Of a stretch of DNA of 64,000 nucleotides, positions 36,743-58,203 are shown in pieces (positions within the stretch are counted from its first letter, which is position 1; each line of letters begins with the position of its first letter). The DNA comes from Candidatus Kapaibacterium sp. Its GTDB lineage: Bacteria > Bacteroidota > Ignavibacteria > Kapaibacteriales > UBA4661. The DNA is taken from assembly GCA_036847245.1 (NCBI GenBank), contig DAIUAL010000001.1:4037-68036 (forward strand), read 5' to 3'. The notes beneath the pieces are model-generated. The model worked only from the letters and a program-made list of their open reading frames with translations, made no database searches and had not been told where the DNA came from. Both the position numbers and the translations under genes were made by a program.

Positions 36743-39700
36743 TCATGAAGAGGAAAGGGGTGGCTTTGCTGTTGGTAATTCCACAATGAATGTTGCACCA
36801 TGACCTAAAGTAGATTCGCACCATACTCGACCACTCATGTGCTCAACCATTTTTTTTACAATGCTCAATCCCAATCCTGTACTATGTTCTCCGGCAGTTG
36901 GTTTTGGTGTTAAGCGCGCAAATTTCCCAAAGAGTTTTTTGAGATCATCGTTGGACAAACCCGGACCTTGATCTTGTACTTCGATGCGGACACAGCCGAT
37001 TTTTTCGGTTATACGAATAAATACACTACGTGACAGTGGTGAATACTTGATAGCATTCGAAATCAAATTATCAATGATTTGCTCTGTTGCATGTTGATCG
37101 GCAAAGACGCATTGTGAACCAAGAACTTGCAATTCAAGATGAATGTTTTTATCCTTGGCGGGTTGTCGATAAAAAGCAATGATATGCTCGACGAGGGGTA
37201 GCATGTCAAATTCTGTAAAATTGGTGGTAAAACCACCTCTTTCTAAACGATTGACATCTAAAAGATTAACCACAAGATTTAGCATACGTGCTGATGATTG
37301 CAAGATAGTTCGGAGTAATTCCGTTCGCATGTCGGTATCCATATGTTCTTCCGATTCAAGCATAAACTCGGCGGTTCCCTTTACCACCGTGATGGGATTC
37401 TTTAAATCATGCGATACAATACCCAAAAACTCATTCTTTTCGTTATTCAGTTCTAAGAGCCGTTCATTTTGCCTTTGCAGTTCTTCGGCTGTTTCGAGTA
37501 AGGCATGTGTTTTTTCGTCAACTAACTGCTGAAGTTCCTGTTTACGGTGCTCTAATCGTCGAACATTAATTTTCACAATACCCCACATTAGGACACCCGC
37601 TCCTGTACTAATGATAACCGATACCCACCACCGCTGATACCATGCTGGAGCAACACTGAAAGTAAAGACTAATGGTTCGCTCCAACGATATGCACCGTCT
37701 TGAATTGCACGCATTTCCAAGCGATATACGCCTTCGGGCAGGTCGAGAATGGTGAACTTTGACTCGACTTGTGATGGTGACCACGAAGTATCTGTTTGAT
37801 TGTTGAGCAAACGATATTGATAGTACATAGTGCTATTGCCAAATGCAATAGAAAGCACCTGCACTTGTATGCTAGAATGATATGGCAAAACAAATTCTTT
37901 AGTATTGGTATGCCTCGCACCCGGAGCAAACAAACCCGCACTTTCGAGTGCCGATAATGATTGCTTCGCATCACCTACCCTGATAGACGTGAAAAAAGGT
38001 GTTGCAGTTATTTTTTGTATAGCACTGGAAATAGGAATAAAAGCCATTCCTCCGACCGTACCAACTATGATACTATTTGTATGGCGGTCATAGAGCATTG
38101 CACGCAACACCGTCTCATTAGCAGGCAAGCCATTGAATTCATTCAAAAAGAAATATGAGCCATTGGGATAATACACCAACACGCCAAAACTCGTTCCAAT
38201 CCACAGTACACCTGACGAGTCACTCGTAATGGACTTAAAGTTCCTTACTTTCTCACCGGTTGAGGCATAAATGATAGGGATAGAATCGATACCCCGAGCC
38301 GTATGGTGGAATAGTCCTTGATTGGTACACAGCCATATATCATTCTGTTCTTTTGCCCATAGGGCATTAACTTCGAATCCGGGATGTATTGTGCCATCCG
38401 ATAGTGCAATACTGATGTCTTCAAACCGATCCCTTTGCTCCGAATACCGAAAAAGATATCCTACATTTCCCTGACTACGTCCAGCACAAAACAACGTACC
38501 ATCAGTTGTTTCGGAAAAAAACCGAATTACAGACATAAGTCCACGTCTTTCGTCATAGTGTTGTGCATTAGCATGCGCTAAAGAGGATGCCTGCTCGTCA
38601 ATACGCAGAACGCCGGCTGCCAGCTCCGCACATCCCCATAGCCTAGAGTGAGAATCTGCAAAAAGATGAAATATCGTCGGATTGCGTACCGTACCGGAAA
38701 GTGTAGGTATAGATTCATGCTTGCTCAATGTCTTAACATGGTATTTTGCTTCAGCATATTTCTGTACTCGAAAAAGCTGTCCTTCGATGGTACTATACCA
38801 TACATAGTGCTCTGTGGTGGCGACTGAGAGAATATCACCACCGATTCGCGTAGAAGAACTAACATTCTCTATTTGTGGAGAATAGTCACTATGCGCTGTA
38901 ATCTTATACATGCTACTGCCATTTGATGTGTACAAGACACCTCGCCCACTGCTTGCAATCGCTTGAATATAGGTGGAAGCATCGGCTTCAACATCAACAG
39001 TCCGAATATGAATAGGATTTAACAGTACGAGTCCCTTGTCTGAGCTTGCCCATATTTCATGATTTGGTGTACTAAGAATGGCATTAATGGTTTTGAATGG
39101 TATTTGACAGGATTGAGGTGAAAAAAACTTGGTTGAAAGAGTCGGTAACAATGCAGTGAACAGACCGTCATTCCATGTGCCAATATATAGTCGACCGTCA
39201 GTGGCTTTGTGCAAAGAAGAAATTCCACCATGATTCCACCATGGAGTACAGCCCAGTACATTTCCCTGTGCATCGATACGCATCTCGGTAATGCCTTGAG
39301 AATGACCTATCAGCAGAACGCCTTGACGTATAGGTAGGAGCGCAGAAACTGCCTCAAAACGTGTGCCGCGAGGTAGCTCTAATGCAATAAATGTATCTTG
39401 TACACGATTATACCAAAAGCAGTAACCGCTCTGTGAGACGACAATAAAACTGCCAAAACCATCGGGTACAAAAGAAAACGATCGAAGGAAGCTATTCGTC
39501 TGACAATAAGACGGAAAGGAGTAACGGCGCAGTGTTTTGTTCTGATAGCGCGAAATAGACCTTGACTGTGCAATCCACAGTGCCCCTTGTTCATCTTGAT
39601 AGAGATCTTTGGGGTAATTCACTGTTGTGTCGTTCTCTGTGCGATCGCCGAGCACTAAGGGTGTAAAACGTACAGAGTCTATCGCTACTGCAATCTCTGC

Positions 39701-40009
39701 AACACCTAAATCATGTGAGACGAGCAAACGATTGTCGGGCGTACGATAGAGATATTTGATGTACTGTGAGGGTAATTGTATCCGAAAATTTTGAAAATGT
39801 TCTCCATCAAACCTTGATAAGCCTTCATCGGTACCAACCCATAAATAGTTATAACTGTCTTGAGCAAGTACTTTTGTAGAGTTTGTCGGTAAGCCCTCGC
39901 GTGTTTTATAGAGAGAAGTTTTAAAGAGAGGAGCTGGCTGTGCAATTGCGCAGTACGAAACGATCCATATCAGAATGCTACTAATAACTATTCGCCGAAG
40001 AGCATACAT
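36743..40009 (-). CDS. sensor histidine kinase with periplasmic two-component-regulator-propeller and Y_Y_Y domains (no receiver/AraC output)
   Basis: Beta-propeller repeats, Y_Y_Y segment before the TM (…FTFSVAPAWYQRWWVSVIISTGAGVLMWGIV), HisKA (…VSHDLKNPI…) and HATPase (…DQGPGLS…GLGLSIV…). Start at ATG 40009 (signal MYALRRIVISSILIWIVSYCAIAQ). Confidence 0.85.
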   Translation of the reverse strand: MYALRRIVISSILIWIVSYCAIAQPAPLFKTSLYKTREGLPTNSTKVLAQDSYNYLWVGTDEGLSRFDGEHFQNFRIQLPSQYIKYLYRTPDNRLLVSHDLGVAEIAVAIDSVRFTPLVLGDRTENDTTVNYPKDLYQDEQGALWIAQSRSISRYQNKTLRRYSFPSYCQTNSFLRSFSFVPDGFGSFIVVSQSGYCFWYNRVQDTFIALELPRGTRFEAVSALLPIRQGVLLIGHSQGITEMRIDAQGNVLGCTPWWNHGGISSLHKATDGRLYIGTWNDGLFTALLPTLSTKFFSPQSCQIPFKTINAILSTPNHEIWASSDKGLVLLNPIHIRTVDVEADASTYIQAIASSGRGVLYTSNGSSMYKITAHSDYSPQIENVSSSTRIGGDILSVATTEHYVWYSTIEGQLFRVQKYAEAKYHVKTLSKHESIPTLSGTVRNPTIFHLFADSHSRLWGCAELAAGVLRIDEQASSLAHANAQHYDERRGLMSVIRFFSETTDGTLFCAGRSQGNVGYLFRYSEQRDRFEDISIALSDGTIHPGFEVNALWAKEQNDIWLCTNQGLFHHTARGIDSIPIIYASTGEKVRNFKSITSDSSGVLWIGTSFGVLVYYPNGSYFFLNEFNGLPANETVLRAMLYDRHTNSIIVGTVGGMAFIPISSAIQKITATPFFTSIRVGDAKQSLSALESAGLFAPGARHTNTKEFVLPYHSSIQVQVLSIAFGNSTMYYQYRLLNNQTDTSWSPSQVESKFTILDLPEGVYRLEMRAIQDGAYRWSEPLVFTFSVAPAWYQRWWVSVIISTGAGVLMWGIVKINVRRLEHRKQELQQLVDEKTHALLETAEELQRQNERLLELNNEKNEFLGIVSHDLKNPITVVKGTAEFMLESEEHMDTDMRTELLRTILQSSARMLNLVVNLLDVNRLERGGFTTNFTEFDMLPLVEHIIAFYRQPAKDKNIHLELQVLGSQCVFADQHATEQIIDNLISNAIKYSPLSRSVFIRITEKIGCVRIEVQDQGPGLSNDDLKKLFGKFARLTPKPTAGEHSTGLGLSIVKKMVEHMSGRVWCESTLGHGATFIVELPTAKPPLSSS

Positions 40010-40154
40010 TACATAGTGCATCATACAGCTGATACACCAATATCGGGTACTCATAATCTGAAGGTGAAAGCTATGGAAGAAATTCATACCACAGAGAGTA
40101 ACTTATTAGGAAGATTGATCTAAAACATAGCACACAGCACACTGTCAAACTCTA

Positions 40155-40661
40155 CTATGTCAGTCTTGTATGTCGTACGAAAATTTCTATCACATGTTCT
40201 AATCCTTGCTGATCATCATGATCAAATCGCGCATGGAGAGGACTGTCGATATCTAATACGGCAACAAGGTGATCATCAACAAGGATAGGTAAAACAATTT
40301 CCGAACGTGAAGCAGAATCGCAAGCGATGTGCCCCGGAAATGCTTCCACATCATCGACAAGAACCGTTTCTCGGGTCGTAGCACAATGTCCGCAAACGCC
40401 ACGTCTGAAATCAATCCGTACGCAAGCCGGTTTGCCATGAAATGGACCCAAGACGAGTTCATTCTTCTCGTTGGTAGAGCGATTAATATAAAAACCAACC
40501 CAGTTAATGTCGGGTAGCACTGCCCATAAAAGCGAAGATAAATTTGCCATGTTGGCAATCATGTCCGGTTCGCCGATGAGAAGAGCTTCGGTTTGCCGAA
40601 CAAGTTCTGCGTAGAGTTCTGTTTTGGATTGGAGAGCGGTCGTATCAGCAACAACAAACAT
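40155..40661 (-). CDS. GAF-domain protein, free methionine-(R)-sulfoxide reductase (fRMsr/YebR)-like
   Basis: Block …NWVGFYINR…LVLGPFHGKPACVRI…GVCG… matches the YebR-type GAF. Confidence 0.65.
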   Translation of the reverse strand: MFVVADTTALQSKTELYAELVRQTEALLIGEPDMIANMANLSSLLWAVLPDINWVGFYINRSTNEKNELVLGPFHGKPACVRIDFRRGVCGHCATTRETVLVDDVEAFPGHIACDSASRSEIVLPILVDDHLVAVLDIDSPLHARFDHDDQQGLEHVIEIFVRHTRLT

Positions 40662-40726
40662 TGATTTACAGTAAAAGAAATGATAAAACAGAAGTATTTA
40701 CTTTATTGACAATTATTTATTCACCA

Positions 40727-43204
40727 TTACTCTCCACAGCCAATTGGTTGACCGGGTGGCGGCAACAGTGGCTTTGGTACAACAGTTGTTTTAGGACTAC
40801 GCACGAAATCACCGATCTGGCTTATGGCAAGCATATACGCAGCTTTAGTCGATTCATCTTTGACTGTTTTACGTTGTATATCGAGCCACGTTCTAAGATT
40901 ATCTAATTGCAATAAACTAATGGCGCGAGTTTGTGCTGTTGCTTCTTCGTCTTGCACAAGGCGCATGAGCGCATGAAGAACTGTTGTGTTGATGGTGCGT
41001 TGTACTTCTGCTAAATACGGATTTATGGGTAAAGAGCTTCTCCAAGTTGCTGAGAGAGTGCTGTTAATGATTTCAGCAAGTGAAGGCAAGCGTGGATCGC
41101 GAGCATGATATTCAATCAAACGTGCAGAGCGTTCGGGATTGAAGAGAAACATTGTTGTGTGATGCACTGCGGCTTCAACCGCCGAGAGTGCGTCAAAAGG
41201 AAGTCCTGTCCGATTTTTGAAGGACTCACGTGTACGTTCAAATCCCGAAGCATGAGGGGGAATAAGCTTGAGCAATTGTTCCGGAAGTGCAAGGGCATTG
41301 ACATTGATGGTTGCAAGCAATGCCTGTAGAGCACTACGCTGCTGATCGGCGGGAATCATAGCCGTAGGTTGTTGTCCGTCGCCACGGAGAGCAAAACGAT
41401 AATCTAGACCACCGATAGATTTACTTACTGCTTCTACCTGATAGCGATGAAGGAAATACATCGGCACCAATGTTTCATCGAGCGAGGACATGGGCTGTCC
41501 TTGAGCAATATTGTTGGCACTGAATGAACGTAAGACTTTTTCTCGTAGTCTCATCAAGCGATTTAATTCTTCGACTGCGTTCTTGCCATTATCCCATAGA
41601 TGTGCCGAAGGATGCGCACCGCCCACCGGACGAGCATCATCATCGGTGATATAATACATGCCAAGTGCGTGAGCAGAATCAAGCAAACGTCGTAAGCTCT
41701 GCTGTTCATTCCCGGAGAATTCTCCGTAGCCAAACTGAATAGAAACTTTATCCCATTCCCCAATGCCGGTAGCATAAGCATTCGCAAGCGTAATAGTGCC
41801 ATTCGGCATGGTATCAATGTGAGGATGCGGATAATCCATGACGGACGTGCGACCTTTCGCAAGTGCACTTGCCGCAAAGTTGTGTGATAATCCCAGAGTA
41901 TGCCCGATTTCATGAGCTGAAAGTTGGCGCAAGCGTGCAAGAGCCATGGCTTTGAGTGAATCAGAAACATTCTTGCCTTCTTCGTAAGCGGCAATCAAAC
42001 CGCTGGCAATGAGATAATCTTGACGCACACGCAAAGATCCGAGAGTAACATGACCCTTGAGAATTTCCCCTGTTCGTTGATCGGTTACGCTTGATCCATA
42101 CTACCATCCCCGTGTTGATCGATGCACCCACTTCACGACATTATATCGTACATCCATGGGGTCAACTGTATCGGGAAGAATCTTTACTTGAAAAGCATTG
42201 ACAAAACCTGCTGCCTCAAATGCTTGGTTCCACCATGTTGCGCCTTCATAGAGTGCTGTACGAATCGGCTCCGGTGCTGCATGATCAATGTAATACACGA
42301 GTGGTTCCCGTGCCTCACTTCGTGCTAAACCGGGATTCTTTTTTTGTAAGCGGTGTCGTGTAATAAAGCGTTGTACAATCGGCTTATCAAAGGGCGTAGC
42401 ATAGTCCATATAGCTTATCGGAAAATATCCAGCTCTTGGATCATATTCACGCATGGTGTACGGATACTCTTCTTTTAGATCAGGTAACTCGATAAATGAA
42501 TGATGCTGACGTACGCTGACATTGGTCGGTGTTGGTGTGACTTCACGAATAAATTGCCCGGTGGGTTCACCAACAAGAGTAATTAACGCTTCAAATTCAG
42601 TGTTCTTCGGAAAACTTTTTGTACGTGGCATAAACATTGCCGACTGACCGGGTGCAAGAGCGTATGAACCCTGACCTGTAGCACGTAATCTACCTGCAAC
42701 ATCATGAGCATCACGTATAAAAAAACTGCTTGCCTCAACAAGTATTGTTTGCTCGTCTTCAGTATCGATCGCAAAACCAAAAAGGACAGAGCGCGCAAAT
42801 GATTCAGCCACAGCATCCTGTTCGCTCTTGTTGTTCGTTACAGCACGATCCCATAAGTTGGGCTGTACCAAGAGTAATTTTGGACCATGACGCTCCAAAC
42901 GTACGACACGCTCGCCGCCAAGTTGACCGCGATCAAGTCCGATATCATTTGAGCCAACGCCTTGTGGTAAAGATACTGAGTAGAGAAAATCTTTTTCTAG
43001 GCGTTTCTTGTCAATTGCCAACCAAATTTTGTCGCTTTTGCTGTCATGATAAAAAGTGAAAAAACCTGAGAATTTTTGCAAACCCGCCACACGTTGTTCA
43101 ATCGGTGATCCTACAGTTTGCGAGGGAGTACTTTGTGCGGACAGTGATTGTATCCGTATTGAGAAGAGTACAATATAGGTGAAGATGAGAAGGAATCGAT
43201 TCAT
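40727..43204 (-). pseudogene. secreted zinc-dependent metalloprotease (HExxH; Bacteroidota DUF5117/DUF4953-type), interrupted by one in-frame TAG at 42101..42103
   Basis: ORFs 42101..43204 and 40727..42034 are in the same frame. The translation reads …[42 protein letters not shown]… with no other stop. The HEIGHTLGLSHNF zinc motif is in the downstream half and the signal peptide in the upstream half. Confidence 0.6.
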
Positions 43205-43273: not shown

Positions 43274-44155
43274 TTAAAACTTTGCATGAAATTCCGTGAT
43301 TTCGCGTTTACCCATGCCGAGTTCTGTCAGTTCACTATCGCTCAGAGAACGCTGTTCTTTGAGCATCCTTTGAATTGCTTGATATTCCATGCGAGAAAAC
43401 TTGATGGAATGCAAAATATAGTCTTCAAATGCTTCGTAAGCAACCGGAACAATCTGCTTGATAATGTTTGCAATGGCTTCACCATAAACACGAATTTCAT
43501 ACTGTGCATGGCTATCCATACGCAGACGCAAAAAGTGAAATAAATTATGCAAGTCAATTTTCCAATACCACTCTGTGTACATTGACAGTGGAAGATTGAT
43601 ACGTGCCATTTCGCGGGCAAGGTCTTGCGCTAAGTATCCTTCGTATTCCTGATACATTTGCTGTTGCGATGCAGAAAATTGATCGACAATTTCTTGTGCC
43701 ACTATAGGGTCAAGCGCCGTATCGCTTCGTCCTTGCTTGTTGATATTGCTTTGTGGACGAATTTGTGAGAGCTCAGGAACATAAAATTCGTCTTTCATAA
43801 CAGAGTAACGGCCACTGTATTCATTGACATTTGCTGTACGATGCCGAATCCATTGGCGCGCAATAAAGATGGGGAGTTTGATATGAAATTTAAACTCAAC
43901 CATTTCAAAAGGTGTCGTGTGGAGGTGGCGAAGCAGATAGCGAATTAATCCACGATCTTCATTCAGCTTTTTCGTGCCATCGCCATAGGAAACACGGGCA
44001 GCTTGTACAATCGAAGCGTCATCACCCATATAGTCAACAAGACGCACAAAACCTTTGTCCAAACAATCTATCGTAAGTCCTTTGAGATTGTGTGCAGGTG
44101 CAGAAAGATAATCAGGTGCAGAAGAGACAGGTAGAGAAGAACTATGCTCAGTCAT
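43274..44155 (-). CDS. thyX: flavin-dependent thymidylate synthase
   Basis: ThyX motif RHRTANVNEYSGRYS and surrounding blocks. Confidence 0.85.
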   Translation of the reverse strand: MTEHSSSLPVSSAPDYLSAPAHNLKGLTIDCLDKGFVRLVDYMGDDASIVQAARVSYGDGTKKLNEDRGLIRYLLRHLHTTPFEMVEFKFHIKLPIFIARQWIRHRTANVNEYSGRYSVMKDEFYVPELSQIRPQSNINKQGRSDTALDPIVAQEIVDQFSASQQQMYQEYEGYLAQDLAREMARINLPLSMYTEWYWKIDLHNLFHFLRLRMDSHAQYEIRVYGEAIANIIKQIVPVAYEAFEDYILHSIKFSRMEYQAIQRMLKEQRSLSDSELTELGMGKREITEFHAKF

Positions 44156-44410: not shown

Positions 44411-45106
44411 ATGATTATCGAATATGTCTTTCGGATAGACGGAGAAGATAAGTTTCAATTTACCATTGATACAAATCGCACTACCACGATGCTCAAACCG
44501 GGCGAAGAACCAAAGGCATGGACAGAACTTGATTTCTATAAGTGTCCTAACTGTCCGTTATCGTCAGAGACACATAAACATTGCCCTGCGGCGCTTGATA
44601 TGCAAGATGTAACAGAGCAGTTTTCAGCGGTAATTTCTTTTCAAGGCATTGAAGTAATTGTGAAAACACCACTTCGCGAGTATCGCAAAATTACTGATGC
44701 ACAGAACGGGGTCTTGGCAATTAATGGTTTAATCATGGCAACGAGCGGATGCCCGATTTTGTCCCGCTTTGGTGCTATGGCAGATTTTCATTTGCCTTTT
44801 GCCTCGCTCGAGGAATCTATTTTTCGATCAGCAAGTTCATACTTAATTAGCCAGTACTATGTTTATAAAGATGGTGGTGTGCCGGATTTTGAGTTTAAAG
44901 GGTTGGAGGCATTTTACAATGAAATCAACAAGGTCAACGCTGCGCTCAAAAACCGTGTGTTTGAGGCATCGTCTGCTGATGCGAGTATCAATGCTTTTGT
45001 GCAATTGTTCGGCTCATCTGCGTTGCTTACGATGATGCTTGAAGAACAGCTTGAGGAAATGCGCGAAAAATTCTCCAAACTTGCACCACGTGTTTCAACA
45101 CAATAG
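44411..45106 (+). CDS. hypothetical protein (CxxC…HxxC cysteine cluster near N-terminus)
   Basis: Clean 231-aa ORF divergent from thyX. No family recognised. Confidence 0.45.
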   Translation: MIIEYVFRIDGEDKFQFTIDTNRTTTMLKPGEEPKAWTELDFYKCPNCPLSSETHKHCPAALDMQDVTEQFSAVISFQGIEVIVKTPLREYRKITDAQNGVLAINGLIMATSGCPILSRFGAMADFHLPFASLEESIFRSASSYLISQYYVYKDGGVPDFEFKGLEAFYNEINKVNAALKNRVFEASSADASINAFVQLFGSSALLTMMLEEQLEEMREKFSKLAPRVSTQ

Positions 45107-45161: not shown

Positions 45162-46550
45162 CTATGCTTTTTCGACTATGAGAGTTTTTATGTTCGTAAA
45201 CTCATAAAACCCGAAGATCGAGAGTTCGCGTCCGTAGCCTGACATTCCTATACCACCAAAAGGCAATCGAGGATCAGATCTTACCATATCATTGATTGCA
45301 CACATACCTACATTGAGTCGATATTCTGCAATTTCTTTGGCTTGATGAAGATCACGAGTAAAAATTGCTGCGCCCAAACCATAATGAGTACGATTAGCCA
45401 CTTCGACAGCATGACGAACATTGCGCGCGATGATGATTGGAGCCACTGGACCAAAAGTTTCCTCTTCGAGAACAAGCATCGAAGTATGTACATTAGTGAG
45501 AATAGTTGGTAGAAATGATGCACCCTTTCCCACACGATGTGAGCCACCCAAACGTGGAATAGCTCCTTGAGCAATAGAGCGATCCACTTGTTCCGCGAGT
45601 GTAGTGCGTAAGTGTTCTGTGGCGAGTGTACTAATATGTGTTGAGGGGTTTTCAGGGTGATCAATTTGATACGAAGAAAATTCGTGTACCAGAGCTTCGG
45701 TAAATTCTTCTGCTCTGTTTTTATGAACAATAAATCGCTTTGCTGCAATACAGCTTTGACCGTTATTTAAGAGTCGAGAGGTTGCACAGACGCGTGCCGC
45801 TTGTTTGATATTAGCATCATCAAGTACGATGTAAGGATCACTACCGCCGAGTTCTAAAACAGATTTTTTAATCGAACTACCTGCCACTTCGGCAATTGCG
45901 CTACCTGCACGTGTACTGCCGGTGCAAGCAACTCCTTTGACAGCGGCATGTTGGATGATAAGAGCTGTATAGGTTTCCACTTTTTCAGGAGCGATTAATA
46001 CTACGCGTAGAGCATTATTCAGAAAACCCGCTCTCCGAAATAAGTCTTCCAGCATCAGAGCACAACCTGTAACATTAGGTGCATGTTTGAGAATAATGGT
46101 GTTGCCCACAGCCAGCGTAGGAAGAGCAAAGCGAATGACTTGCCAAAAAGGGTAATTCCACGGCATTACACCTAGGATTACACCTAATGGACGATGAAGG
46201 ACATAGCTTTGATGATATCCCATTCTGATGCGTTGCGGTGTTAAAAATTTTTCCGCATTGTTCGCAACATATTCACAGCAGAGAGCACATTTTTCGATTT
46301 CAGCGAGCGATTGTGTAATGGGTTTACCCATCTCGCGTGTAATAAGAAGGGCGAGATCATGAATTTCATTGCGGAGTAGTTCTGCCAATTTGTGCATAGG
46401 AGCAACACGCTCGGCAACTGACATATCTGCCGTTTCATGTGATGTGTGGTATACTTTTTCAATCGTCGAAAAAATTGTCGTCAACGAATGTGCTTTGTAG
46501 CGAGCAATTTTTTCATTTGTGAAAGGATTAATTGAAACAAGCTGGATCAT
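45162..46550 (-). CDS. NAD(P)-dependent aldehyde dehydrogenase (succinate-semialdehyde dehydrogenase-like)
   Basis: ALDH blocks …ELGGSDPYIV…, catalytic Cys region …NNGQSCIAAKRF…. Start trimmed to ATG 46550 (MIQLVSINPFTNEK…). Confidence 0.85.
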   Translation of the reverse strand: MIQLVSINPFTNEKIARYKAHSLTTIFSTIEKVYHTSHETADMSVAERVAPMHKLAELLRNEIHDLALLITREMGKPITQSLAEIEKCALCCEYVANNAEKFLTPQRIRMGYHQSYVLHRPLGVILGVMPWNYPFWQVIRFALPTLAVGNTIILKHAPNVTGCALMLEDLFRRAGFLNNALRVVLIAPEKVETYTALIIQHAAVKGVACTGSTRAGSAIAEVAGSSIKKSVLELGGSDPYIVLDDANIKQAARVCATSRLLNNGQSCIAAKRFIVHKNRAEEFTEALVHEFSSYQIDHPENPSTHISTLATEHLRTTLAEQVDRSIAQGAIPRLGGSHRVGKGASFLPTILTNVHTSMLVLEEETFGPVAPIIIARNVRHAVEVANRTHYGLGAAIFTRDLHQAKEIAEYRLNVGMCAINDMVRSDPRLPFGGIGMSGYGRELSIFGFYEFTNIKTLIVEKA

Positions 46551-46699
46551 GACAGTGAATGAAAAGCGAAGGAAGAAACAACGATAACTTGGCAAACATA
46601 CGCAGAGCGGTCAAAGAACAAGGAGAAGAAAATAAAAAACGGTACTCAACAAAAAGAGAGTACCGTTTTTTCTAAGGAGTGCTGTATGAGAACACGAGC

Positions 46700-46864
46700 T
46701 GTAGGGGTAGGAGTCGAACCTACACGGGGCGGTTAGCTCTGCGCCGGCGAGAAGAAAGACGAGTGGTATGGTTCGTATCTTTCTTCTCGTTCGAGCAGAA
46801 TTTTTTCCGGAATCCCCACCGCCGAGACTGGGCGGCATGGCTGCCAAAATTTCATCACCCTACA
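46700..46864 (-). ncRNA. tRNA-like / structured RNA candidate (~165 nt): canonical T-arm and 7-bp acceptor pairing flanking a 12-bp perfect hairpin
   Basis: On the minus strand: 5'-TGTAGGG (rc of 46858..46864), then T-arm GTAGG-TTCGACT-CCTAC (rc of 46707..46723), then CCCTACA-G 3' (rc of 46700..46706). Internal 6-bp/7-nt-loop hairpin (46818..46836) and a 12-bp perfect hairpin cgagaagaaaga/tctttcttctcg (46748..46759 / 46778..46789). Too long for a tRNA and too short for tmRNA. Confidence 0.25.
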
Positions 46865-47044
46865 ATGTCAAAGAAGTTGCTCAATAATTGTAAACTGAGA
46901 AATCAGTATGTTTATCATTGAACTAGTACAAACTTAAAGAAAGGGTTTAGTTGTTGCAAATAATTTTATGAAATAGCTTAATTTTTAGATAATTTTGAAT
47001 AAAAATTATATTTTTTATCAAAATGTTAAAATTGATAGGCTGAT

Positions 47045-47644
47045 ATGCATACCCATTTACAAATTGGCAAACACCATGACCGCTCAGTCGAAGAGGATTT
47101 AGATGAACTTGATTTGCAGATCTTGCATTTGCTCTTGCAAAATGCACGCATGCCTTATACCGATATAGCGGATAAGGTACATACATCGAGCGGCACTATT
47201 CATGTACGCATGAAAAAAATGGAACAGCTTGGTATTGTGCGAGGTGCGCATTTGCAGATTGATGAGGCACTATTAGGATATGATATTTGTGCCTTCTTGG
47301 GGATTTATTTGGAAAAAGGTTCACTTTACAAGCAGGCTGTTAAAGATTTGGAGCAAATCCCTGAGATTGTTGAAATGCACTATACAACAGGTAATTACAG
47401 TATTTTGGCAAAGCTTATTTGTCGTGATACGCGGCATTTACAAGCGGTGCTGAATGATAAAATTCAGGCAGTATCCGGTATTGAGCGGACAGAAACATTC
47501 ATCTCATTGGAGCAGAGTATGCAACGACCACTACAATTGCTCCAACCTGTTGCGAAAGAAGAAAAACATGCAAGACATACCGTAGCACCGTCAGGAGCCA
47601 AAATGAAGACACAATCTGGTGCAAGCACGCGCATTAAAAAGTAG
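47045..47644 (+). CDS. Lrp/AsnC-family transcriptional regulator (with C-terminal extension)
   Basis: LDELDLQILHLLLQNARMPYTDIADKVHTSSGTIHVRMKKMEQLGIV is an AsnC-type HTH. RAM-like domain follows. Very AT-rich upstream region. Confidence 0.75.
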   Translation: MHTHLQIGKHHDRSVEEDLDELDLQILHLLLQNARMPYTDIADKVHTSSGTIHVRMKKMEQLGIVRGAHLQIDEALLGYDICAFLGIYLEKGSLYKQAVKDLEQIPEIVEMHYTTGNYSILAKLICRDTRHLQAVLNDKIQAVSGIERTETFISLEQSMQRPLQLLQPVAKEEKHARHTVAPSGAKMKTQSGASTRIKK

Positions 47645-47659
47645 TATCACGCTTTTTCG

Positions 47660-49861
47660 TCAGGACAAAGACAACTTCTCATCCAAGTGCACAACACGAT
47701 GTTCCCGTAGTGACTGTACAGCAGCAAAGGTTGCTTGTGTAACAGCGTGAATTTCTTGATAGGAAATCGGCATAGGCGAGCCACGCTGAATAGCTGAAAG
47801 TGTAGCTTGCAGTTCGGTGGCATGACCCTTGTCGCCATTGTATGAGCGAGTATTGATTGTACCATCTTCGGCAGAACGTAGATGCGTAAAGTTATCCATG
47901 ACGACACTGCGTCCTTCGCAATGCACTTCAAAGTATTCTTTAGGAAGTGCACGATCGCCATTAGCAAAATACTGTATGCTACCAATTGAACCATCGGCAA
48001 AGCTGAGCGTAAGAATTATGGTGTCTTCTGTAGCACTCCCTACGCCTTGTATGCTAATTGTCGAAACACTGACGGGTAAAGAGCCACTGATGAAGGTCAT
48101 ACAGTCGATAAAATGACACACTTCGCCAATGATTCGCCCGCCTTGTGCAGAGTCTTGAATCCAATGTGATGGGGATATTGCACCTGCATTCACACGATAC
48201 ATCATAGCAAGTGGTGCATACCGATGCTCTTGGTGTTTCATCAAAATGTCGCGCATGTCAACAAAAGGAGCAGAAAATCGTCGGTTGAATCCTACCATGA
48301 TGCTACTGCCGTTCAGACCATTGTGTATGAGTGCTGTGTCGATTGCAATAAGCTCTTCAGGGGTAATTGCTAAAGGTTTTTCGACAAAAACAGGTTTCTG
48401 TTGTGTAATTGCAGAAATAACTATTTGTGCATGTGAGTCATGACGTGAGCAGGCAATAATTGCATTCACATTCGGGTGCTCGATAACGGCATTCATATCG
48501 GTTGTGAACTCTTCAAAACCATGAAGTTCGGCGGCAGATTTTGCACTTGCCGAACTTGAAGTTGCAATTGCACGTAGGTGTAATGGTGCCTTACGGCGAT
48601 AATTTTGTAGATGCGGAATGATATGTGTACGTGCAAAGTTACCTGCGCCAATCATACCAATATTGATACTATCCGCTGTTATATATCTGGTATGCGAACT
48701 TTTACCGAAAATGACAGGTAAAGCCCCTTCACGTTCAGGATATGATACGACAATCCCGCAATAGGGTTGATAGTCCTTGCTTGATTCTTTCGTGGTAATA
48801 AGTCGATATGCTTGCGCAATATCTTGAATAGCAAAGGAATGTGTAGTGATATATTCTGTTGACACTGCGCCGCTCTCAAGCAATTGAACGAAGTGCTCCA
48901 TATTGCGTCGTTCGCTCCAACGCACATAATGTGGAGGATAATCTATGCCTTTTTCCTCGTAAAGCGGATCATAGCGACCAGGTCCATAGCTACAGGCGAT
49001 GGTCAGTTGGACTTCTTTTTCATAGAAAGGCGAACGAGGTATATCCATAGCAACAGCGCCAACTACCACCACACGTCCACGCTTGCGTACCGCAGAAAGC
49101 GCAAGCGTCATTGGTTGATTGTTTGCTGCTGATGCGGTGATTAATACGGCATCGGCGCCAAGACCATTTGTCATCGAAGCTATTGTCTTGAGGCATGAGC
49201 CGTTCGATGGAAAAACTGCTTCAGCACCACACTGTTTAGCACGTTCACGCAGATCGGCACGAGGTTCGATACCAACGACACGGCACCCTGCTGACCGAAG
49301 CATTTGAACGGTCAACAAACCGATTAAGCCCAAACCTACAACCACCACGACCTCGCCCAAATGCGGTTCTGCTTGCCGAATACCTTGCAAGGCAATTGCA
49401 CCAATGGTAGTATACGCTGCACTATCCGTTGAGACATTCTGTGGGAGTGCTACCGTCAAATTTTTGGGGGCAGTGATAATCTCCGCATGATATGCATAGG
49501 TATTGCCGGCACATGCGACACGGTCGCCGGGTTTAAATTCAGCGCAGCGTGAAGCAATGACCTCACCGGCAACGCTATAGCCAAGGGGACGGTAAGCATC
49601 CAATACTCCTTGAACTTTTCTGAGTGTTGCTGTCAATCCATCTTTCTTTATGCTGTCCAATACGGTCTGTACTGCTTCGGGTTGCTTGCGAATACGTTCC
49701 AAGATGCCGGACTTTGCTTTTGTTACGGAGGTTCTTTCTGTGCCGGCACTAATAACAGAATGGGAAACACGTACCAAAACACCTCCTTCAATACATTGTG
49801 GTGCAGGGATGTCTTCGACGATGATCTCGCCACTTTTTTGGTATTGGAGTAACTGAAGCAT
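47660..49861 (-). CDS. bi-domain oxidoreductase: N-terminal MDR/zinc-ADH-like domain fused to C-terminal Gfo/Idh/MocA dehydrogenase
   Basis: N-terminus GroES-like plus Rossmann (VVVVGLGLIGLLTVQML). C-terminal half begins INIGMIGAGNFARTHIIPHL (Gfo/Idh/MocA NAD-binding). Confidence 0.8.
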   Translation of the reverse strand: MLQLLQYQKSGEIIVEDIPAPQCIEGGVLVRVSHSVISAGTERTSVTKAKSGILERIRKQPEAVQTVLDSIKKDGLTATLRKVQGVLDAYRPLGYSVAGEVIASRCAEFKPGDRVACAGNTYAYHAEIITAPKNLTVALPQNVSTDSAAYTTIGAIALQGIRQAEPHLGEVVVVVGLGLIGLLTVQMLRSAGCRVVGIEPRADLRERAKQCGAEAVFPSNGSCLKTIASMTNGLGADAVLITASAANNQPMTLALSAVRKRGRVVVVGAVAMDIPRSPFYEKEVQLTIACSYGPGRYDPLYEEKGIDYPPHYVRWSERRNMEHFVQLLESGAVSTEYITTHSFAIQDIAQAYRLITTKESSKDYQPYCGIVVSYPEREGALPVIFGKSSHTRYITADSINIGMIGAGNFARTHIIPHLQNYRRKAPLHLRAIATSSSASAKSAAELHGFEEFTTDMNAVIEHPNVNAIIACSRHDSHAQIVISAITQQKPVFVEKPLAITPEELIAIDTALIHNGLNGSSIMVGFNRRFSAPFVDMRDILMKHQEHRYAPLAMMYRVNAGAISPSHWIQDSAQGGRIIGEVCHFIDCMTFISGSLPVSVSTISIQGVGSATEDTIILTLSFADGSIGSIQYFANGDRALPKEYFEVHCEGRSVVMDNFTHLRSAEDGTINTRSYNGDKGHATELQATLSAIQRGSPMPISYQEIHAVTQATFAAVQSLREHRVVHLDEKLSLS

Positions 49862-50362: not shown

Positions 50363-51649
50363 GTGAGTATTCAACCCCTTTTTCAAAATCTCCGAAATCT
50401 TGTACAAAGACTCAATTTCTGCGGTGTGTTATTACTGTTGGTCGTTCACTCTAGTGGTGTAGCACATGCAGCTACACATTTTGTCATACAAACAGATTCA
50501 ACTTTTCGTGTACAGCTTACGCCGTTCCCGACGATTGGTACGCCTCAGACATCAATTGCATTACTACCAACACTTGCATTTTTGCCGGAAACGCGAATCA
50601 TTGGCGGCTTGGTGGTACAAGCACTGTTACGAAATAATGAAGATATAGGTTTTTCAACGAAGCCAAGTATGATTCAACCACGTGGGAAATTTTCGCCCTC
50701 GATTATCGGTGATCTCAATGCAATTTCTGATGAATCGCATCAGGAAAGCGAATCTCGACGAGTGCGTCCATCTCGTGTTGTGTTGAATGCTTTATATACA
50801 CAGAATAAGCAAACAATTCTCTCTTTTGAGCCGGATTTGTGGTTGCATCATGACTCTTTGCATTTATATGCATTTGCCGAGTACACAAATTTCCCTGATA
50901 AATTTTGGGGTCTTGGTGCGCATACGCCATCAATACAAGAAGAGCAGTTTAGTGGTAAGTATTACACATTGCAAGCCAGTGTGGAGTGGTTACTTGCACC
51001 GAGCATATATGCCGGTACACGTTATGAATTTCAAAGAACCTTTATTGAAGGTGAGCAAAATTCAATGATCAATTCAGGTACTGTTCCCGGTACAGCGCCA
51101 ACAACAGTTTCTGGGCTGACGCTTTTTGCGACATATGATAGCCGTGATAATCTTTTTGCAACCGAACAAGGATCATTCCTACAAGTCGTGGTAAGTAATT
51201 TTTCAACCTTCCTCGGTAGTGACATCAATTTTATGCGTGCAAGTATTGATGCCCGTACATTTATGACACCGTATCGTGGTGGAACACTTGCATTGCAAAG
51301 TATTATGTCGGTTGCGTCGGTTGGTACACCATTTCGACAGATGGGATTGTTAGGTGGGCAACGGTTGCTTCGTGGTATTCGACGTGGTCGCTTTGTTGAT
51401 AACACGATGGTCGTTACGCAGGCTGAATGGCGGCAACATCTTTTTTGGCGCATTGGAGTTGTCGGTTTTGCAGGTATCGGCACGGTTGCCCCTTCGCTTG
51501 ATAAAATTGAAATTAATGATGTAAAAATAACCGCCGGCTTGGGGTTACGGTTTGCTCTCTTCCCTGATGACCGCTTAAATGTTCGATTTGATCTGGGGTG
51601 GAGTAAGTACGGTAGTGGTTTTTATATCAATATTGCGGAAGCATTTTAA
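50363..51649 (+). CDS. outer-membrane beta-barrel protein (Omp85/surface-antigen-like barrel, no obvious POTRA)
   Basis: Signal peptide. Amphipathic beta-strand periodicity. C-terminal …GSGFYINIAEAF with terminal Phe. Confidence 0.5.
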   Translation: MSIQPLFQNLRNLVQRLNFCGVLLLLVVHSSGVAHAATHFVIQTDSTFRVQLTPFPTIGTPQTSIALLPTLAFLPETRIIGGLVVQALLRNNEDIGFSTKPSMIQPRGKFSPSIIGDLNAISDESHQESESRRVRPSRVVLNALYTQNKQTILSFEPDLWLHHDSLHLYAFAEYTNFPDKFWGLGAHTPSIQEEQFSGKYYTLQASVEWLLAPSIYAGTRYEFQRTFIEGEQNSMINSGTVPGTAPTTVSGLTLFATYDSRDNLFATEQGSFLQVVVSNFSTFLGSDINFMRASIDARTFMTPYRGGTLALQSIMSVASVGTPFRQMGLLGGQRLLRGIRRGRFVDNTMVVTQAEWRQHLFWRIGVVGFAGIGTVAPSLDKIEINDVKITAGLGLRFALFPDDRLNVRFDLGWSKYGSGFYINIAEAF

Positions 51650-53507: not shown

Positions 53508-55832
53508 TTGTTGAGTACGTTGAAGGAAATGGCTATGTCTTTGTCTTTGCGCTCGGTTATTTCAAACATTACCCGGCAGGGAATTCAGGCAGATGCTACG
53601 GAAGCCGATATCCGTAGGCATCAGGCAGGCATATTGATAATACTAATGGCAATGATACTGATTGCTACAGATATAATCACATTACATTTTCTACATGTCA
53701 ACACCACATTGTCAATCAAGGTAACAAATGTTTGTGCCTATGTTGTTGCTCTATTTCTATATCGACGAGGTCATACATTCATTGGTGCCTATATTGCTAT
53801 TGGTATAGCTAACTTAGCAATCTATGTCGCATCCATTGAGGACGGAAAAAATTCACTGACAGTCGTGTGCTTTCTAACGACAACTATTTCACCGTTTATA
53901 TTCTTTTCGTTACGCCAGTGGCGGTGGATTGCCTTTTCAGTGTTTTGGTCATGGTTTTTCGCGGTCTTAACCCTCGTATACAACTATCAGTTACCACCCG
54001 CACTTGCTTGGTTAGGCATTATTACCAGTACAAAACCAACGGATGTAGTATCAATTGTCACTCTGAGTATAACTATTTTTTTTGTTGCTGGGACAACTCT
54101 TTTTCTTGTATTCCTCAACGATCATTCCGAACAAGTTGCATGGCAACAAGTACATGCCGCCAAAAATAATGAAAGACGTCTTACGTCTGTGTTGTCTTCC
54201 GTAACAGATCCGATATGGATTACCGATATCAATCTAAAAGTTGTTATGGCAAATGCTGCATTTCATACAGTGTATAAGGCACGTTATGGAAGAGAATATG
54301 ACAAGGAAAGTATCGATGAAATTCCCAATTTACCCGAAGAAGAAGTACTGTGGAAACCACGGTATGCCGATGCTATCAAAGGTAAGACGGAAGAGTTTTA
54401 CAATTCCTTTGTCGGTGTTGATGGACAACGAGTTTGGGAAGCGGTAACTTTGACACCACTGAAATTAAATGATTCTATTTCCGGTGTTGTAGGAATTGCA
54501 CGAAACATTACAGCAGTAAAAGAAGCAGATGCAAGTATTTCTGCTACAGCGATGCAATTGCAAGCATTGGTTGCATCTCTTGATGACATTGTTTGCCAAG
54601 TTAATCGTACAGGATTTGTTCTTGCCGTTTGGGCATCGCATCATTCGCCATTGTCAGAGTTTGCAAAGAGTTTACAAGGTAAACATATTCGCCTTCTTGC
54701 TGACGATGCAGGTGCAGCAATGATGAATGCAATTAATAATACGTTTATCACACAGCGTCCGCATTCTATTGAGTATTATCTCCAACGAGTTCGTCGTTGG
54801 TATCAAGCCAAACTTTCGTACGTTACAGAGAATAACTCTGTAACAATTCTTCTGGCGGATGTTTCAGATCGCAAAGCTAATGACGAGCACATTCAAGGAT
54901 TAAATAATCAATTGCAAGAACTGAATGCTTTATACTCAGAAGCAAATCGAAATCTTGCAGACAATAATGCACAGCTCGAACAGCGCGTCAGTGAGCGTAC
55001 TGCTGAATTGCAACGTATGACCGAACAATTACAAGAGGAAAATGGTATCCGTAAGCATACCGAAGAAAGGTTGTCACGCGCTCTTCAACGCGAACAGAGC
55101 TTTAGTGACATGAAGTCACGGTTTGTCACGATGTTGTCTCACCAATTCCGCACACCACTGACTTTGGTTCAAAATGGGCTCGATATTATTACTTCCTTAC
55201 TGATCCGAAATACGAGTATTTCTCATGAACAGGTTGCTAAACATCTCTCATCGATGATGGGGGCTACTGACCAGATTGTTGAGCTACTGGAGCGTGTAGC
55301 AACTTTATCGGATATGCAGATCAATCTTCTCGAAGAAAAGCCACACCAATTTGTACTTGAGCCACTTTTACGCACTATTATACATGAGTGCGCTATGCAG
55401 GATGAAAACAATGTTGTTAAGCCATTGGAGCGTATTCAAGTAAGGTTGCAGGGAGACATTCCTTCCCTGTATACAATTGAAACAGCACTACACAGAGCCT
55501 TGATGGAAGTAGTGAAGAATGCGTTGCACTACAGCGACGAGAATTCGCCTATTGTAATTTCAGCTGAAGTCGACAGAATACATTCTCATCGTGTACATAT
55601 TACCGTTACCAATCAAGGCAAACAGCTATCCGAAGAAGAATATCGGATGATTTTTGAAAACTTTTACCGCACAGGTCTTGCACAAACCGTTGGGAGTCAG
55701 CGTGGTTTAGGAATTGGTTTAGGAATTGCGCAGTTTTGCATGCAAACACTTAATGGCATTATCGTGTGTACGAATTCTGAATCAAATTTGACTCATTTTC
55801 ATTTGGAATTTCCTGCTGTTCTTCCGCAATAA
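53508..55832 (+). CDS. sensor histidine kinase, multi-TM N-domain + 2 PAS + coiled coil + HisKA/HATPase (paralog 1 of 3)
   Basis: About 6-7 N-terminal TM helices. PAS-like (…DPIWITDINLKVVMANAAF…, …LDDIVCQVNRTGFV…). S-helix ERTAELQRMTEQLQEEN. H-box MLSHQFRTPL. N/G boxes (…NALHYS…, GLGIGLGIA). Confidence 0.8.
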   Translation: MLSTLKEMAMSLSLRSVISNITRQGIQADATEADIRRHQAGILIILMAMILIATDIITLHFLHVNTTLSIKVTNVCAYVVALFLYRRGHTFIGAYIAIGIANLAIYVASIEDGKNSLTVVCFLTTTISPFIFFSLRQWRWIAFSVFWSWFFAVLTLVYNYQLPPALAWLGIITSTKPTDVVSIVTLSITIFFVAGTTLFLVFLNDHSEQVAWQQVHAAKNNERRLTSVLSSVTDPIWITDINLKVVMANAAFHTVYKARYGREYDKESIDEIPNLPEEEVLWKPRYADAIKGKTEEFYNSFVGVDGQRVWEAVTLTPLKLNDSISGVVGIARNITAVKEADASISATAMQLQALVASLDDIVCQVNRTGFVLAVWASHHSPLSEFAKSLQGKHIRLLADDAGAAMMNAINNTFITQRPHSIEYYLQRVRRWYQAKLSYVTENNSVTILLADVSDRKANDEHIQGLNNQLQELNALYSEANRNLADNNAQLEQRVSERTAELQRMTEQLQEENGIRKHTEERLSRALQREQSFSDMKSRFVTMLSHQFRTPLTLVQNGLDIITSLLIRNTSISHEQVAKHLSSMMGATDQIVELLERVATLSDMQINLLEEKPHQFVLEPLLRTIIHECAMQDENNVVKPLERIQVRLQGDIPSLYTIETALHRALMEVVKNALHYSDENSPIVISAEVDRIHSHRVHITVTNQGKQLSEEEYRMIFENFYRTGLAQTVGSQRGLGIGLGIAQFCMQTLNGIIVCTNSESNLTHFHLEFPAVLPQ

Positions 55833-55899: not shown

Positions 55900-58203
55900 A
55901 TGTCGGTGCTTGCAGAGTTTATCCTCTCGCTTACTCAAGCTGGAATGAGTGATGATATCACGACGCATGATCAAAAGCGTTTTCGTGTGATGAATATTGC
56001 TTTCCTTATTGGGATTGCGATATGTCTCATCTTAACACTCTTCTATGTATTGCATGGTGCTCATAGTTATGTGTGGACATCGATTGCTTCGACAAGTTTA
56101 TTGATTATGTGCTTTGTCCTTCGCATTATTGGATACACAAATGGAGGAAACTTTTTTGCATTATTGATCATGAACATTGTGATTTTTATGGCGGAATATA
56201 GTTTCCCTGTAGGATCTGATATACATCTCCTTTATCTGCTCCCGCTTGCAACACTGTTTCTTGCTTATGAGCCAACGGAGTGGCGGTATATTAGTTTTTT
56301 TACAATTTTTCCTCTTATCCTACATACCATAGTCTTGATTACAGAGTATGTACCACCCGTGTTAATGGCAGGCATTATTGTTGAGGAAAAAAGCATACCG
56401 CCTCATGTTATGGCTTATTTAAGTTTTGTTATTGCCGTCTTAGGTGTCATTGCTTTTGTGATTGTCTATGCTAATGAAAATTATCGAACCGAGAAGATTC
56501 TAGAGCGTCAAGTATCAACCATCCGTGAGCAAGAGCAGAAGTTATCCAGCATTTTGAATGCAATTCCTGACCCTATTTGGCTGATTGATACTAACTACAC
56601 TGTCTATGTGGGTAATGAAGCAATGGCGCGACATAATGAAAACCGAACGGGATATCGTTTGGCAATTGGTGCTGTCGTTTCTAATTCAATTTATACACCG
56701 GAAGAGCTTCGCATGTGGCAGGCAAAGTACTCATCAGCATTTGCCGGCAATTATGAAAGCTTTGAATATACAAGTGTTTATTCCGATGGCCGACGATGGT
56801 TTGCTATCACAGTTGCACCGGTGGTGATTGCCAATCGTATTACCGGCGCGGTTGGTATTCTCCGTGATATCACAGCAATAAAACGTACTCAGCAAGGTAT
56901 CATTCGCAGTGAGGCAAATTTAAAAGCGGTAATATCATCGTTGGATGATATCATCTTTCAAATCAATAAAGAGCATCAAATCGAGAATGTATGGACATCC
57001 GATCATTATGCGTTTTCTAATGTTGGCGAATTGATTGGTAAATCAGTAGCACCGTTCTTCTATCAAGCCAGCCAGCAAGTTTCTAGTGCGATAGATATGG
57101 TGTTTGCAACTCACAAGCCTCAAAGTGTTGAATTTTATATCGAGCAAATGCGTCGATGGTATCGTGCAAAAATTTTGTACGTCATGATTAGTGGTAAAGA
57201 GACAGTTACTGTGCTCCTTGCAGATGTTTCTAGTCGCAAACAATATGAACAAGAGATTCTTAACTTGAATGGAAGACTGACACAGCTCAATGAAAATCTT
57301 GAAGAACGTGTTGCGGAGCGTACACAAGAACTAAAAAGCCTTGCATCAGAACTTCAAAATGAAGTCAGAATTCGCACCCATGCAGAAGAACGCTTATCGG
57401 TTGCCTTGGAACGTGAACACCTTTTCAGCGAGATGAAAACACGTCTTGTTACGTTGCTGTCACACCAATTTCGTACGCCGCTCACATATATTCAATCTGG
57501 TGCTGACATTATTGAACATTCGATGCGCACGGGGCGTACTCTTCTTCCTGAGCAAATCAATAAGTACTTAGAAGGTGTCTATGTTGGTACAGAGCAAATT
57601 GTTAATCTTATTGACAATGTGTCGCGGTTGATGGACGTGCAGACTGCTATTCTGCAAGACGACGCTGAAGACTTTAATCTGACAGACCTTGTTCAAAATA
57701 TTGTTAAAGAGTTTAACTACAGCGATGATTTGCATGGATTGGAGGCAATTGAGCGAGTACGTATTTCGGCACCTGCTCTGTTGAATGTTCATACTGTACA
57801 ATTGGCTATTCGTGCCGCTGTACAAGAATTACTCAAAAATGCACTTACGTATTCATTACCTAAAACGCCGATTTCTATTGATATTGTATCGCAAAAAGAT
57901 GATAGTCTTACGAATGATGAAGATGAGATAACAAGCATATCACCGCAGATTGAGATACGTATTACCAATATGGGGTATGGTATTGCTCCAAATGAAATTG
58001 AGTCTGTTTTTGAGTACTTTTATCGTTCGGGTGAACATGATGCTGTGGGGAAAAGTCGTGGTTTGGGCATCGGACTTGGTTTAGTCAAATTCTGTGCTGA
58101 GGCAGTGCGTGGAAGTGTAAGATTGGACACGGATTTAACAGAAAAAGACATAACCAAAGAGACAACATTTACATTTATTTTCCCCCAGAATGCTACTTTG
58201 TGA
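55900..58203 (+). CDS. sensor histidine kinase, multi-TM + PAS + HisKA/HATPase (paralog 2 of 3)
   Basis: Collinear with paralog 1: …DPIWLIDTNYTVYVGNEAM…, LDDIIFQINKEHQI…, ERTQELKSLASELQNE, LLSHQFRTPL, GLGIGLGLV. Confidence 0.8.
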   Translation: MSVLAEFILSLTQAGMSDDITTHDQKRFRVMNIAFLIGIAICLILTLFYVLHGAHSYVWTSIASTSLLIMCFVLRIIGYTNGGNFFALLIMNIVIFMAEYSFPVGSDIHLLYLLPLATLFLAYEPTEWRYISFFTIFPLILHTIVLITEYVPPVLMAGIIVEEKSIPPHVMAYLSFVIAVLGVIAFVIVYANENYRTEKILERQVSTIREQEQKLSSILNAIPDPIWLIDTNYTVYVGNEAMARHNENRTGYRLAIGAVVSNSIYTPEELRMWQAKYSSAFAGNYESFEYTSVYSDGRRWFAITVAPVVIANRITGAVGILRDITAIKRTQQGIIRSEANLKAVISSLDDIIFQINKEHQIENVWTSDHYAFSNVGELIGKSVAPFFYQASQQVSSAIDMVFATHKPQSVEFYIEQMRRWYRAKILYVMISGKETVTVLLADVSSRKQYEQEILNLNGRLTQLNENLEERVAERTQELKSLASELQNEVRIRTHAEERLSVALEREHLFSEMKTRLVTLLSHQFRTPLTYIQSGADIIEHSMRTGRTLLPEQINKYLEGVYVGTEQIVNLIDNVSRLMDVQTAILQDDAEDFNLTDLVQNIVKEFNYSDDLHGLEAIERVRISAPALLNVHTVQLAIRAAVQELLKNALTYSLPKTPISIDIVSQKDDSLTNDEDEITSISPQIEIRITNMGYGIAPNEIESVFEYFYRSGEHDAVGKSRGLGIGLGLVKFCAEAVRGSVRLDTDLTEKDITKETTFTFIFPQNATL

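Follow-up and report, generated by a model that had tools for sequence, protein, structure and literature searches.

The gene considered here lies on the minus strand at 40727..43204 of the window, by which we mean the whole 64-kb stretch of DNA that was analysed. Its translation, Pfam domains and homologs identify it as the gene of a zinc-dependent metalloprotease of the DUF5118, DUF5117 and DUF4953 (Met-zincin) type. Read from 43204 to 40727, it has 825 codons followed by a terminal TAA, and the translation contains exactly one internal stop. This stop is an in-frame TAG at codon 368 (42101..42103, minus strand). It replaces the Ser of the RGW-S-YG motif, as is seen from the translation, from the homologs and from a sister assembly described below. 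The two open reading frames listed for the region, 42101..43204 and 40727..42034, share one frame. Hence, the original prediction of a same-frame nonsense interruption, made by a single TAG in about 825 codons and not by a frameshift, is correct. With the TAG at codon 368 the gene lacks, in the window, the uninterrupted frame of a functional gene.

Upstream of the stop are a hydrophobic, signal-peptide-like N-terminal segment, MNRFLLIFTYIVLFSIRIQSLSAQ (43133..43204, minus strand), which was read by eye from the translation, and the DUF5118 (residues 43-81) and DUF5117 (residues 93-289) domains, placed by Pfam at 42338..43078 on the minus strand. Downstream of it is the DUF4953 Met-zincin catalytic domain (41036..41953, minus strand; Pfam, E = 1.9e-67). 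The translation of this downstream part also carries HEIGHTLGLSH at residues 431-441 (41882..41914, minus strand), which is the HExxHxxGxxH zinc-binding motif. This is the arrangement that had been claimed, with the signal peptide before the stop and the zinc site after it. DUF5117 and DUF4953 follow each other from the N- to the C-terminus and both exceed the gathering score (126.9 bits vs 27 and 228.2 bits vs 24.2, respectively), which assigns the protein to the family; DUF5118 reaches 28.7 bits vs 27.

The domain order of the split gene is that of uninterrupted homologs of about 826 aa. The read-through protein matches thousands of such proteins with the same three domains, and the top homologs, which are metagenomic orthologs, are 81% and 77% identical to it over the full length. 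Against 120 homologs of ~810-900 aa the colinearity is end to end, with 95-100% of the query covered. The C-terminus of the family, ...PPGQPIGCGE, is kept, and the gene is otherwise colinear with the ~826-aa orthologs. The family itself is widespread in Bacteroidota, Ignavibacteria/Kapaibacteria and other groups. The protein from the window shares with it the domain order, the length, the zinc-binding motif, the RGWSYG...DPRTGE stretch and the C-terminal sequence. Among named genomes, MAGs of Ignavibacteria and Candidatus Kapaibacterium are the closest. Loci of the nearest relatives share parts of the gene neighbourhood. As in the window, thyX is the gene immediately upstream of the protease gene in L002 (P0002), and the GAF gene immediately follows the protease gene in L001 (P0001). 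A PDB sequence search gave no solved structure for the protease, and a sequence search gave no NCBIfam model for it.

In the alignment of the 120 best homologs all 120 have Ser in the column of the stop, which lies inside the invariant R-G-W-S-Y-G. Among all fetched homologs that contain the motif, Ser is present in 284 of 285 and Gly in one. The codons in 83 orthologous loci are TCT (33), TCG (14), TCA (12), TCC (10), AGT (10) and AGC (4). The nearest relatives have TCG, a codon that a single C→A change converts to TAG. The inspection of the ortholog codon, recommended together with the original prediction, therefore gives a clean result: Ser is invariant and the nearest relatives use TCG. 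Homologs that end or start at the stop site are absent among the 289 fetched, and thus the orthologs do not naturally end at this point, which had been named as the observation that would speak against the interruption.

The rest of the gene is well preserved. Of the near-invariant columns 156 of 158 are kept, and the two that deviate, stop368 and Gln376, are both within a short patch, which is discussed below. The gene has no indels. Since only two of 158 columns deviate and the C-terminus is kept, the gene is not an old, decaying pseudogene. A long-standing pseudogene, or relaxed selection, was considered separately and rejected, because it cannot give nine changes in 69 bp and leave the other 2.4 kb clean.

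The ThyX protein of the window (43274..44155) has an exact match on a scaffold of the NCBI assembly GCA_002405405.1. This assembly (L004, L005, L007 and L009) is the sister assembly of our comparison. The alignment of L005, L007 and L009 with the window covers 47,098 bp, with 99.93% identity and a single indel site. Judged by it, GCA_002405405.1 and the window come from two assemblies of what is essentially one strain. In the sister the protease frame is open from the start codon until an N-run gap about 40 codons before the normal end of the gene. Codon 368 is TCG (Ser) there, and the sister differs from the window at the stop by one change, C→A on the coding strand, that is G→T on the plus strand at 42102. 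The stop is thus absent from the second assembly of the same strain, as is expected of an artefact.

The total number of mismatches between the window and the sister is 35, and the background is about one per ~1,800 bp (5.5e-4 per base). Nine of the 35 are concentrated in a patch of 69 bp at 42078..42146 in the sister alignment, at positions 42078, 42088, 42094, 42095, 42102, 42107, 42119, 42133 and 42146. The expected number in 69 bp is 0.038, and the Poisson probability of nine is ~5e-19, or ~2e-14 when corrected for all positions. Substitutions affect about 13% of the patch, indels are absent from it, and its span is less than one short read. From the sister to the window, the changes on the plus strand are A→T (four), G→T (three), C→A (one) and T→C (one). 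Hence, 7/9 are purine-to-T changes on the plus strand, and in the same seven the coding strand acquires A.

Four of the patch changes are synonymous (CGT→CGA twice and GGT→GGA twice), and five alter the protein (Q358K, S368stop, A371S, I373V and P376Q). Three of the nine, giving K358, stop368 and Q376, each introduce a residue unseen in the family or a stop. Gln376 (CAA, 42077..42079, minus strand) is eight codons past the stop, at a position where 120/120 homologs have Pro and the sister has CCA (Pro). Lys358 (AAG, 42131..42133, minus strand) replaces the Gln or Asn of the homologs, and the sister has CAG (Gln). At the nine patch sites the closest ortholog, L001 (81% aa identity), has the base of the sister in 8/9 and that of the window in 0/9, and therefore the patch bases of the window are private and derived. 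Nor are the variant bases supplied by any relative in the 83 loci. As the TAG is one of nine clustered substitutions, its framing as a single event in the original prediction does not hold. The question to be answered becomes that of a corrupted patch and not that of a nonsense mutation.

Outside the patch the protease gene has a tenth private aberrant base. It is located at 42850 and gives Asp119 (Y119D; GAT, 42848..42850, minus strand); at this position all 120 homologs show Tyr, Phe or His, and the codon of the sister is TAT (Tyr). In all, the ORF of the window differs from the family by the TAG at the invariant Ser and by Lys358, Gln376 and Asp119, none of which is attested in the family, whereas the sister assembly of the same strain has family-normal residues at these aberrant codons.

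The differences between the two assemblies were also considered as a whole. The ratio of transitions to transversions over all 35 is 8:27, with p = 0.21 against 1/3 transitions and p = 1e-7 against 2/3 transitions. The ratio is consistent with random base replacement, whereas a natural spectrum dominated by transitions is excluded. The codon differences comprise 15 nonsynonymous and 9 synonymous changes, a proportion close to that of unselected random changes, and 8 further sites are intergenic. Four differences are adjacent dinucleotides, at 21611/2, 25884/5, 51437/8 and 52815/6. Compared with the 120 homologs, the window has four family-foreign residues and the sister has one, F762, at a position occupied by I, V, M, L or T in the window and the homologs. 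The aberrant F762 of the sister indicates that errors or unselected changes occur in both assemblies. A third, run-level assembly (Logan SRR5324757) agrees with the sister against the window at 46775-46791; its contigs cover 37689..40858 and 46772..48316 and do not reach the TAG. Taken together, the spectrum, the codon counts, the dinucleotides, F762 and the third assembly imply that most differences between the assemblies are noise and not evolved strain divergence.

Further copies of the strain were sought among genome and metagenome contigs with a degenerate 73-nt pattern that accepts either allele over the patch, and 0 matches were obtained. The exact 367-aa product upstream of the stop has no record in an exact look-up. 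Pieces of the repaired protein (290 aa and 547 aa) gave nothing above 83% identity, in searches whose hits were apparently filtered by length relative to the query. Literature that mentions the run or assembly accessions was not found.

Several explanations of the TAG that go beyond error and recent mutation can be weighed against these data. Programmed decoding of UAG (readthrough, a suppressor tRNA, pyrrolysine or a reassigned code) would yield the full-length protease, and the sole point for it is the open, conserved frame that flanks the stop on either side. With known UAG recoding systems the case has in common an in-frame UAG inside a conserved ORF; unlike in those, no second case occurs in the 64 kb, other genes end with UAG and the relatives have Ser. 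TAG ends 14/52 long ORFs in the window, and its use as a genuine terminator at 1226-1228, where it ends a long ORF, is as originally predicted. At residue 231 the DUF6901 gene (44411..45106) ends with TAG, in exact register with the TAA that ends its ortholog, and the terminal TAG of the GAF gene likewise coincides exactly with the TAA of its ortholog. Therefore, reassignment of the code, previously called unlikely, is excluded. Six same-frame stops in the window have 100 or more open codons both before and after them, and only the protease TAG among these is inside a single conserved gene, so that the split does not result from two ORFs that happen to be adjacent. Within the 64-kb window there are no tRNA genes and no Rfam families at the gathering score. 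The 123 nt from the stop fold no better than shuffled sequences (z = +0.45), and the base following the TAG is U; a U after the stop is a strong termination context in E. coli. Against UAG decoding stand also the TCG of the same strain in its second assembly, the lack of a stop or an end at the site in any homolog, with Ser codons in all 83 loci, and the eight neighbouring substitutions, since damage to invariant residues around the stop is not expected at a recoding site. We thus regard UAG decoding as highly improbable. The original shortlist had named sequencing error, a very recent mutation and programmed readthrough or suppression; its first two members survive, and the third is unsupported, given the TCG of the sister, the uninterrupted homologs and the absence from the window of a downstream structure, tRNA genes and Rfam families. 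The patch could also have been acquired as a short recombination tract from a divergent lineage, or be a consensus chimera formed from cross-mapped reads of another species. The tract is short with sharp borders, the residues introduced by A371S and I373V occur in more distant homologs, and the four synonymous changes are in third positions. However, donor bases are absent from the 83 orthologous loci, where the closest relatives match the window at only 0-2 of the 9 sites, and no donor with the same nine bases is present among genome and metagenome contigs. Moreover, a functional donor could not carry the TAG, Gln376 or Lys358, as the Ser and the Pro are invariant. Import by recombination is therefore rejected on the ortholog DNA, and import or chimerism in general seems to us quite improbable. 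Adenine-centred hypermutation of the segment by a diversity-generating retroelement (DGR) is suggested by the seven of nine differences that involve a coding-strand A in one of the two assemblies. Nevertheless, a second (template) copy of the segment is absent from the 64-kb window, and the polarity is wrong, because the derived state is A, whereas DGRs turn a template A into any base. In addition, about 20 other coding-strand adenines of the patch are identical in both assemblies, and the segment is an invariant motif proximal to the catalytic domain and not a C-terminal variable ligand-binding region. With no template repeat in the window and the wrong polarity and pattern, a DGR target was rejected, and we give this reading next to no weight.

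The choice is then mainly between an error and a real mutation. We favour, with reasonable though far from complete confidence, a low-quality read patch that was fixed in the consensus. In this scheme, the local coverage of a low-abundance metagenome-assembled genome would dip over the patch, one low-quality read (or very few) would be the sole support across the dip, and the assembler would keep the miscalls of the bridging read and fix them in the consensus. Known Illumina errors are of a similar kind. On the Genome Analyzer G is called as T from the middle of the read, and A and C are also miscalled as T in later cycles, the so-called T accumulation (Kircher et al. 2009, PMC2745764); direction-specific runs of consecutive, sequence-specific miscalls have been described as well (Nakamura et al. 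2011, PMC3141275). The patch likewise consists of a series of substitutions free of indels, fits within one read and is direction-specific, with G→T and A→T predominating; as in consensus errors, the remaining differences between the assemblies are transversion-rich and unfiltered by selection. By this analogy, on which the naming of the platform depends, it looks like the poor-quality tail of a read. A read error would then be the cause in preference to a real mutation, and the specific chemistry would be T over-calling late in the reads; unlike in simple T over-calling, 2/9 patch changes (C→A and T→C on the plus strand) are not to T. Other points, too, count against an artefact. The contig of the window is apparently much longer than the gapped scaffolds of the sister, which could mean good coverage, and with good coverage a patch of nine errors should not survive. 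A signature of purine-to-T transversions is made in vivo, too, by SOS/Pol V-type error-prone synthesis. Finally, the sister possibly originates from a different sample, and the two strains could then truly differ. The competing explanation is a very recent real inactivation, in which one event of error-prone repair or translesion synthesis introduced nine substitutions at once, the TAG included, for instance during gap filling of the Pol V/ImuC type over ~70 nt with A inserted opposite template purines. The protease gene would then be a fresh strain pseudogene, and the secreted product would be the 367-aa fragment upstream of the stop, which lacks the catalytic domain. The strand coherence of the changes (7/9 purine to T on the plus strand), the undecayed rest of the gene, as expected for a very recent event, and the long, contiguous contig of the window are in line with this explanation. 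To our knowledge, nine substitutions in 69 bp in one natural event are far beyond the commonly reported multi-nucleotide mutations. SOS expression specifically induces strand-biased A:T→T:A and G:C→T:A transversions (bioRxiv 10.1101/2020.01.15.908301), and these classes match 7/9 patch changes. The known events of such untargeted SOS/Pol V mutagenesis are, however, single substitutions scattered genome-wide, and a cluster of nine in 69 bp is not described in bioRxiv 10.1101/2020.01.15.908301, where clusters are not mentioned. The other 26 differences between the assemblies are equally error-like and some of them are errors of the sister, which means that error is demonstrably present in these data. 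Besides, the window is contradicted by two independent assemblies at 46775-46791. On balance a real mutation of this kind is possible, but we doubt it, and we are more tentative still about the narrower proposal that the patch is the footprint of one tract of an error-prone polymerase in a wild uncultured Ignavibacteria/Kapaibacteria-like bacterium.

Hence, we suggest that an error in sequencing or assembly, or at most a one-off mutation, is the most likely origin of the TAG, rather than programmed recoding. The stop belongs to a patch of private changes that is absent from the sister assembly, where the codon is TCG. The sister assembly, the ortholog codons and the spectrum of differences together assign the stop to a locally corrupted stretch, and the interruption is best classed as not a real feature.

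Were the footprint of an error-prone polymerase true, it would represent a one-step knockout of a conserved secreted protease, and a natural mutation shower would have been caught before further decay. Reads proving the patch real would make it a modestly interesting case of multi-site mutagenesis in one event, still with no bearing on regulation or recoding. On this less likely reading the interruption is a fresh strain-specific pseudogene, which is commonplace.

We consider the result mainly as a caution, as an in-frame stop in a conserved gene of a MAG invites talk of recoding or readthrough. The locus may serve as a worked example of how a recoding candidate is told from a corrupted patch. 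The underlying gene is most likely, to judge by its homologs and the sister assembly, an ordinary, intact gene that has TCG (Ser) as codon 368 and encodes a secreted zinc metalloprotease of about 826 aa. We therefore advise against annotating it as a pseudogene or as a candidate for recoding; the annotation should be that of a putatively intact zinc metalloprotease with Ser368, and the corrected protein probably has also Tyr119, Gln358, Ala371, Ile373 and Pro376.

The 3′ end of the zinc metalloprotease gene (40725..40858) is broken both in the sister assembly GCA_002405405.1, derived from essentially the same strain, and in the run-level Logan assembly SRR5324757. The sister scaffold carries an N-gap corresponding to window positions 40725..40844, the Logan contig breaks off at 40858, and among the three assemblies compared the segment is bridged in the window only. 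The bridging sequence codes for the conserved C-terminus of the family, ...PPGQPIGCGE, and thus appears to be correct. The break common to both other assemblies hints at a local coverage problem around the protease gene.

A second small cluster of differences between the window and the sister assembly, comprising four mismatches and one indel site, is located at 46693..46791, in the intergenic region between the gene at 45162..46595 (-) and that of an AsnC-type regulator (47045..47644), and adjoins the end of the sister scaffold. At 46775, 46783, and 46791 the independent Logan contig has the bases of the sister assembly; hence, at these positions it is the window that deviates from the other two assemblies. 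At 40921, within codon 762 of the protease gene, the sister assembly has TTT (Phe) versus ATT (Ile) in the window. In homologs the residue at this position is I, V, M, L, or T, and the aberrant assembly here is the sister, not the window. The sister change is to T on the strand read, as are most changes in the window's patch of substitutions around the in-frame TAG. Therefore, private and probably erroneous bases are present in both assemblies.

Four further differences between the window and the sister assembly affect adjacent dinucleotides, for example GA versus AG or GC versus CG, and all four alter an amino acid: Q/E in a UPF0102-like gene (21611-21612, where the adjacent changed codon is synonymous), V/A in a guanylate-cyclase-domain gene (25884-25885), A/H in an Omp85 gene (51437-51438), and G/E in a DUF445 gene (52815-52816). 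These look like consensus errors in one or the other assembly.

Large proteins of the sensor histidine kinase type (Reg_prop / PAS / HisKA / HATPase_c) are encoded at several places in the window: 36743..40087 (-), 53508..55832 (+), and 55900..58203 (+). One such kinase lies directly downstream of the GAF gene, which is itself a neighbor of the protease gene. The gene neighborhood of the 77%-identity relative (L002) differs from this arrangement.

The homolog search was apparently limited to proteins of about 0.95-1.75 times the query length, which bears on any fragment search: with a 290-aa query all matches were of 508 aa or shorter, and the 81%-identical, 826-aa ortholog P0001 was absent from the list. 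The protein homology search listed many protease-family fragments of 300-500 aa on very long contigs, such as P0124 (305 aa, 1.5-Mb contig), P0224 (348 aa, 1.4-Mb contig), P0144, P0151, P0163, P0180, and P0195. None of the 300-500-aa fragments listed ends at the RGW site, the position of the stop in the window. Since their contigs are very long, truncation at contig ends is not obvious, and we suggest that these fragments may be split or truncated copies of the protease in other genomes.
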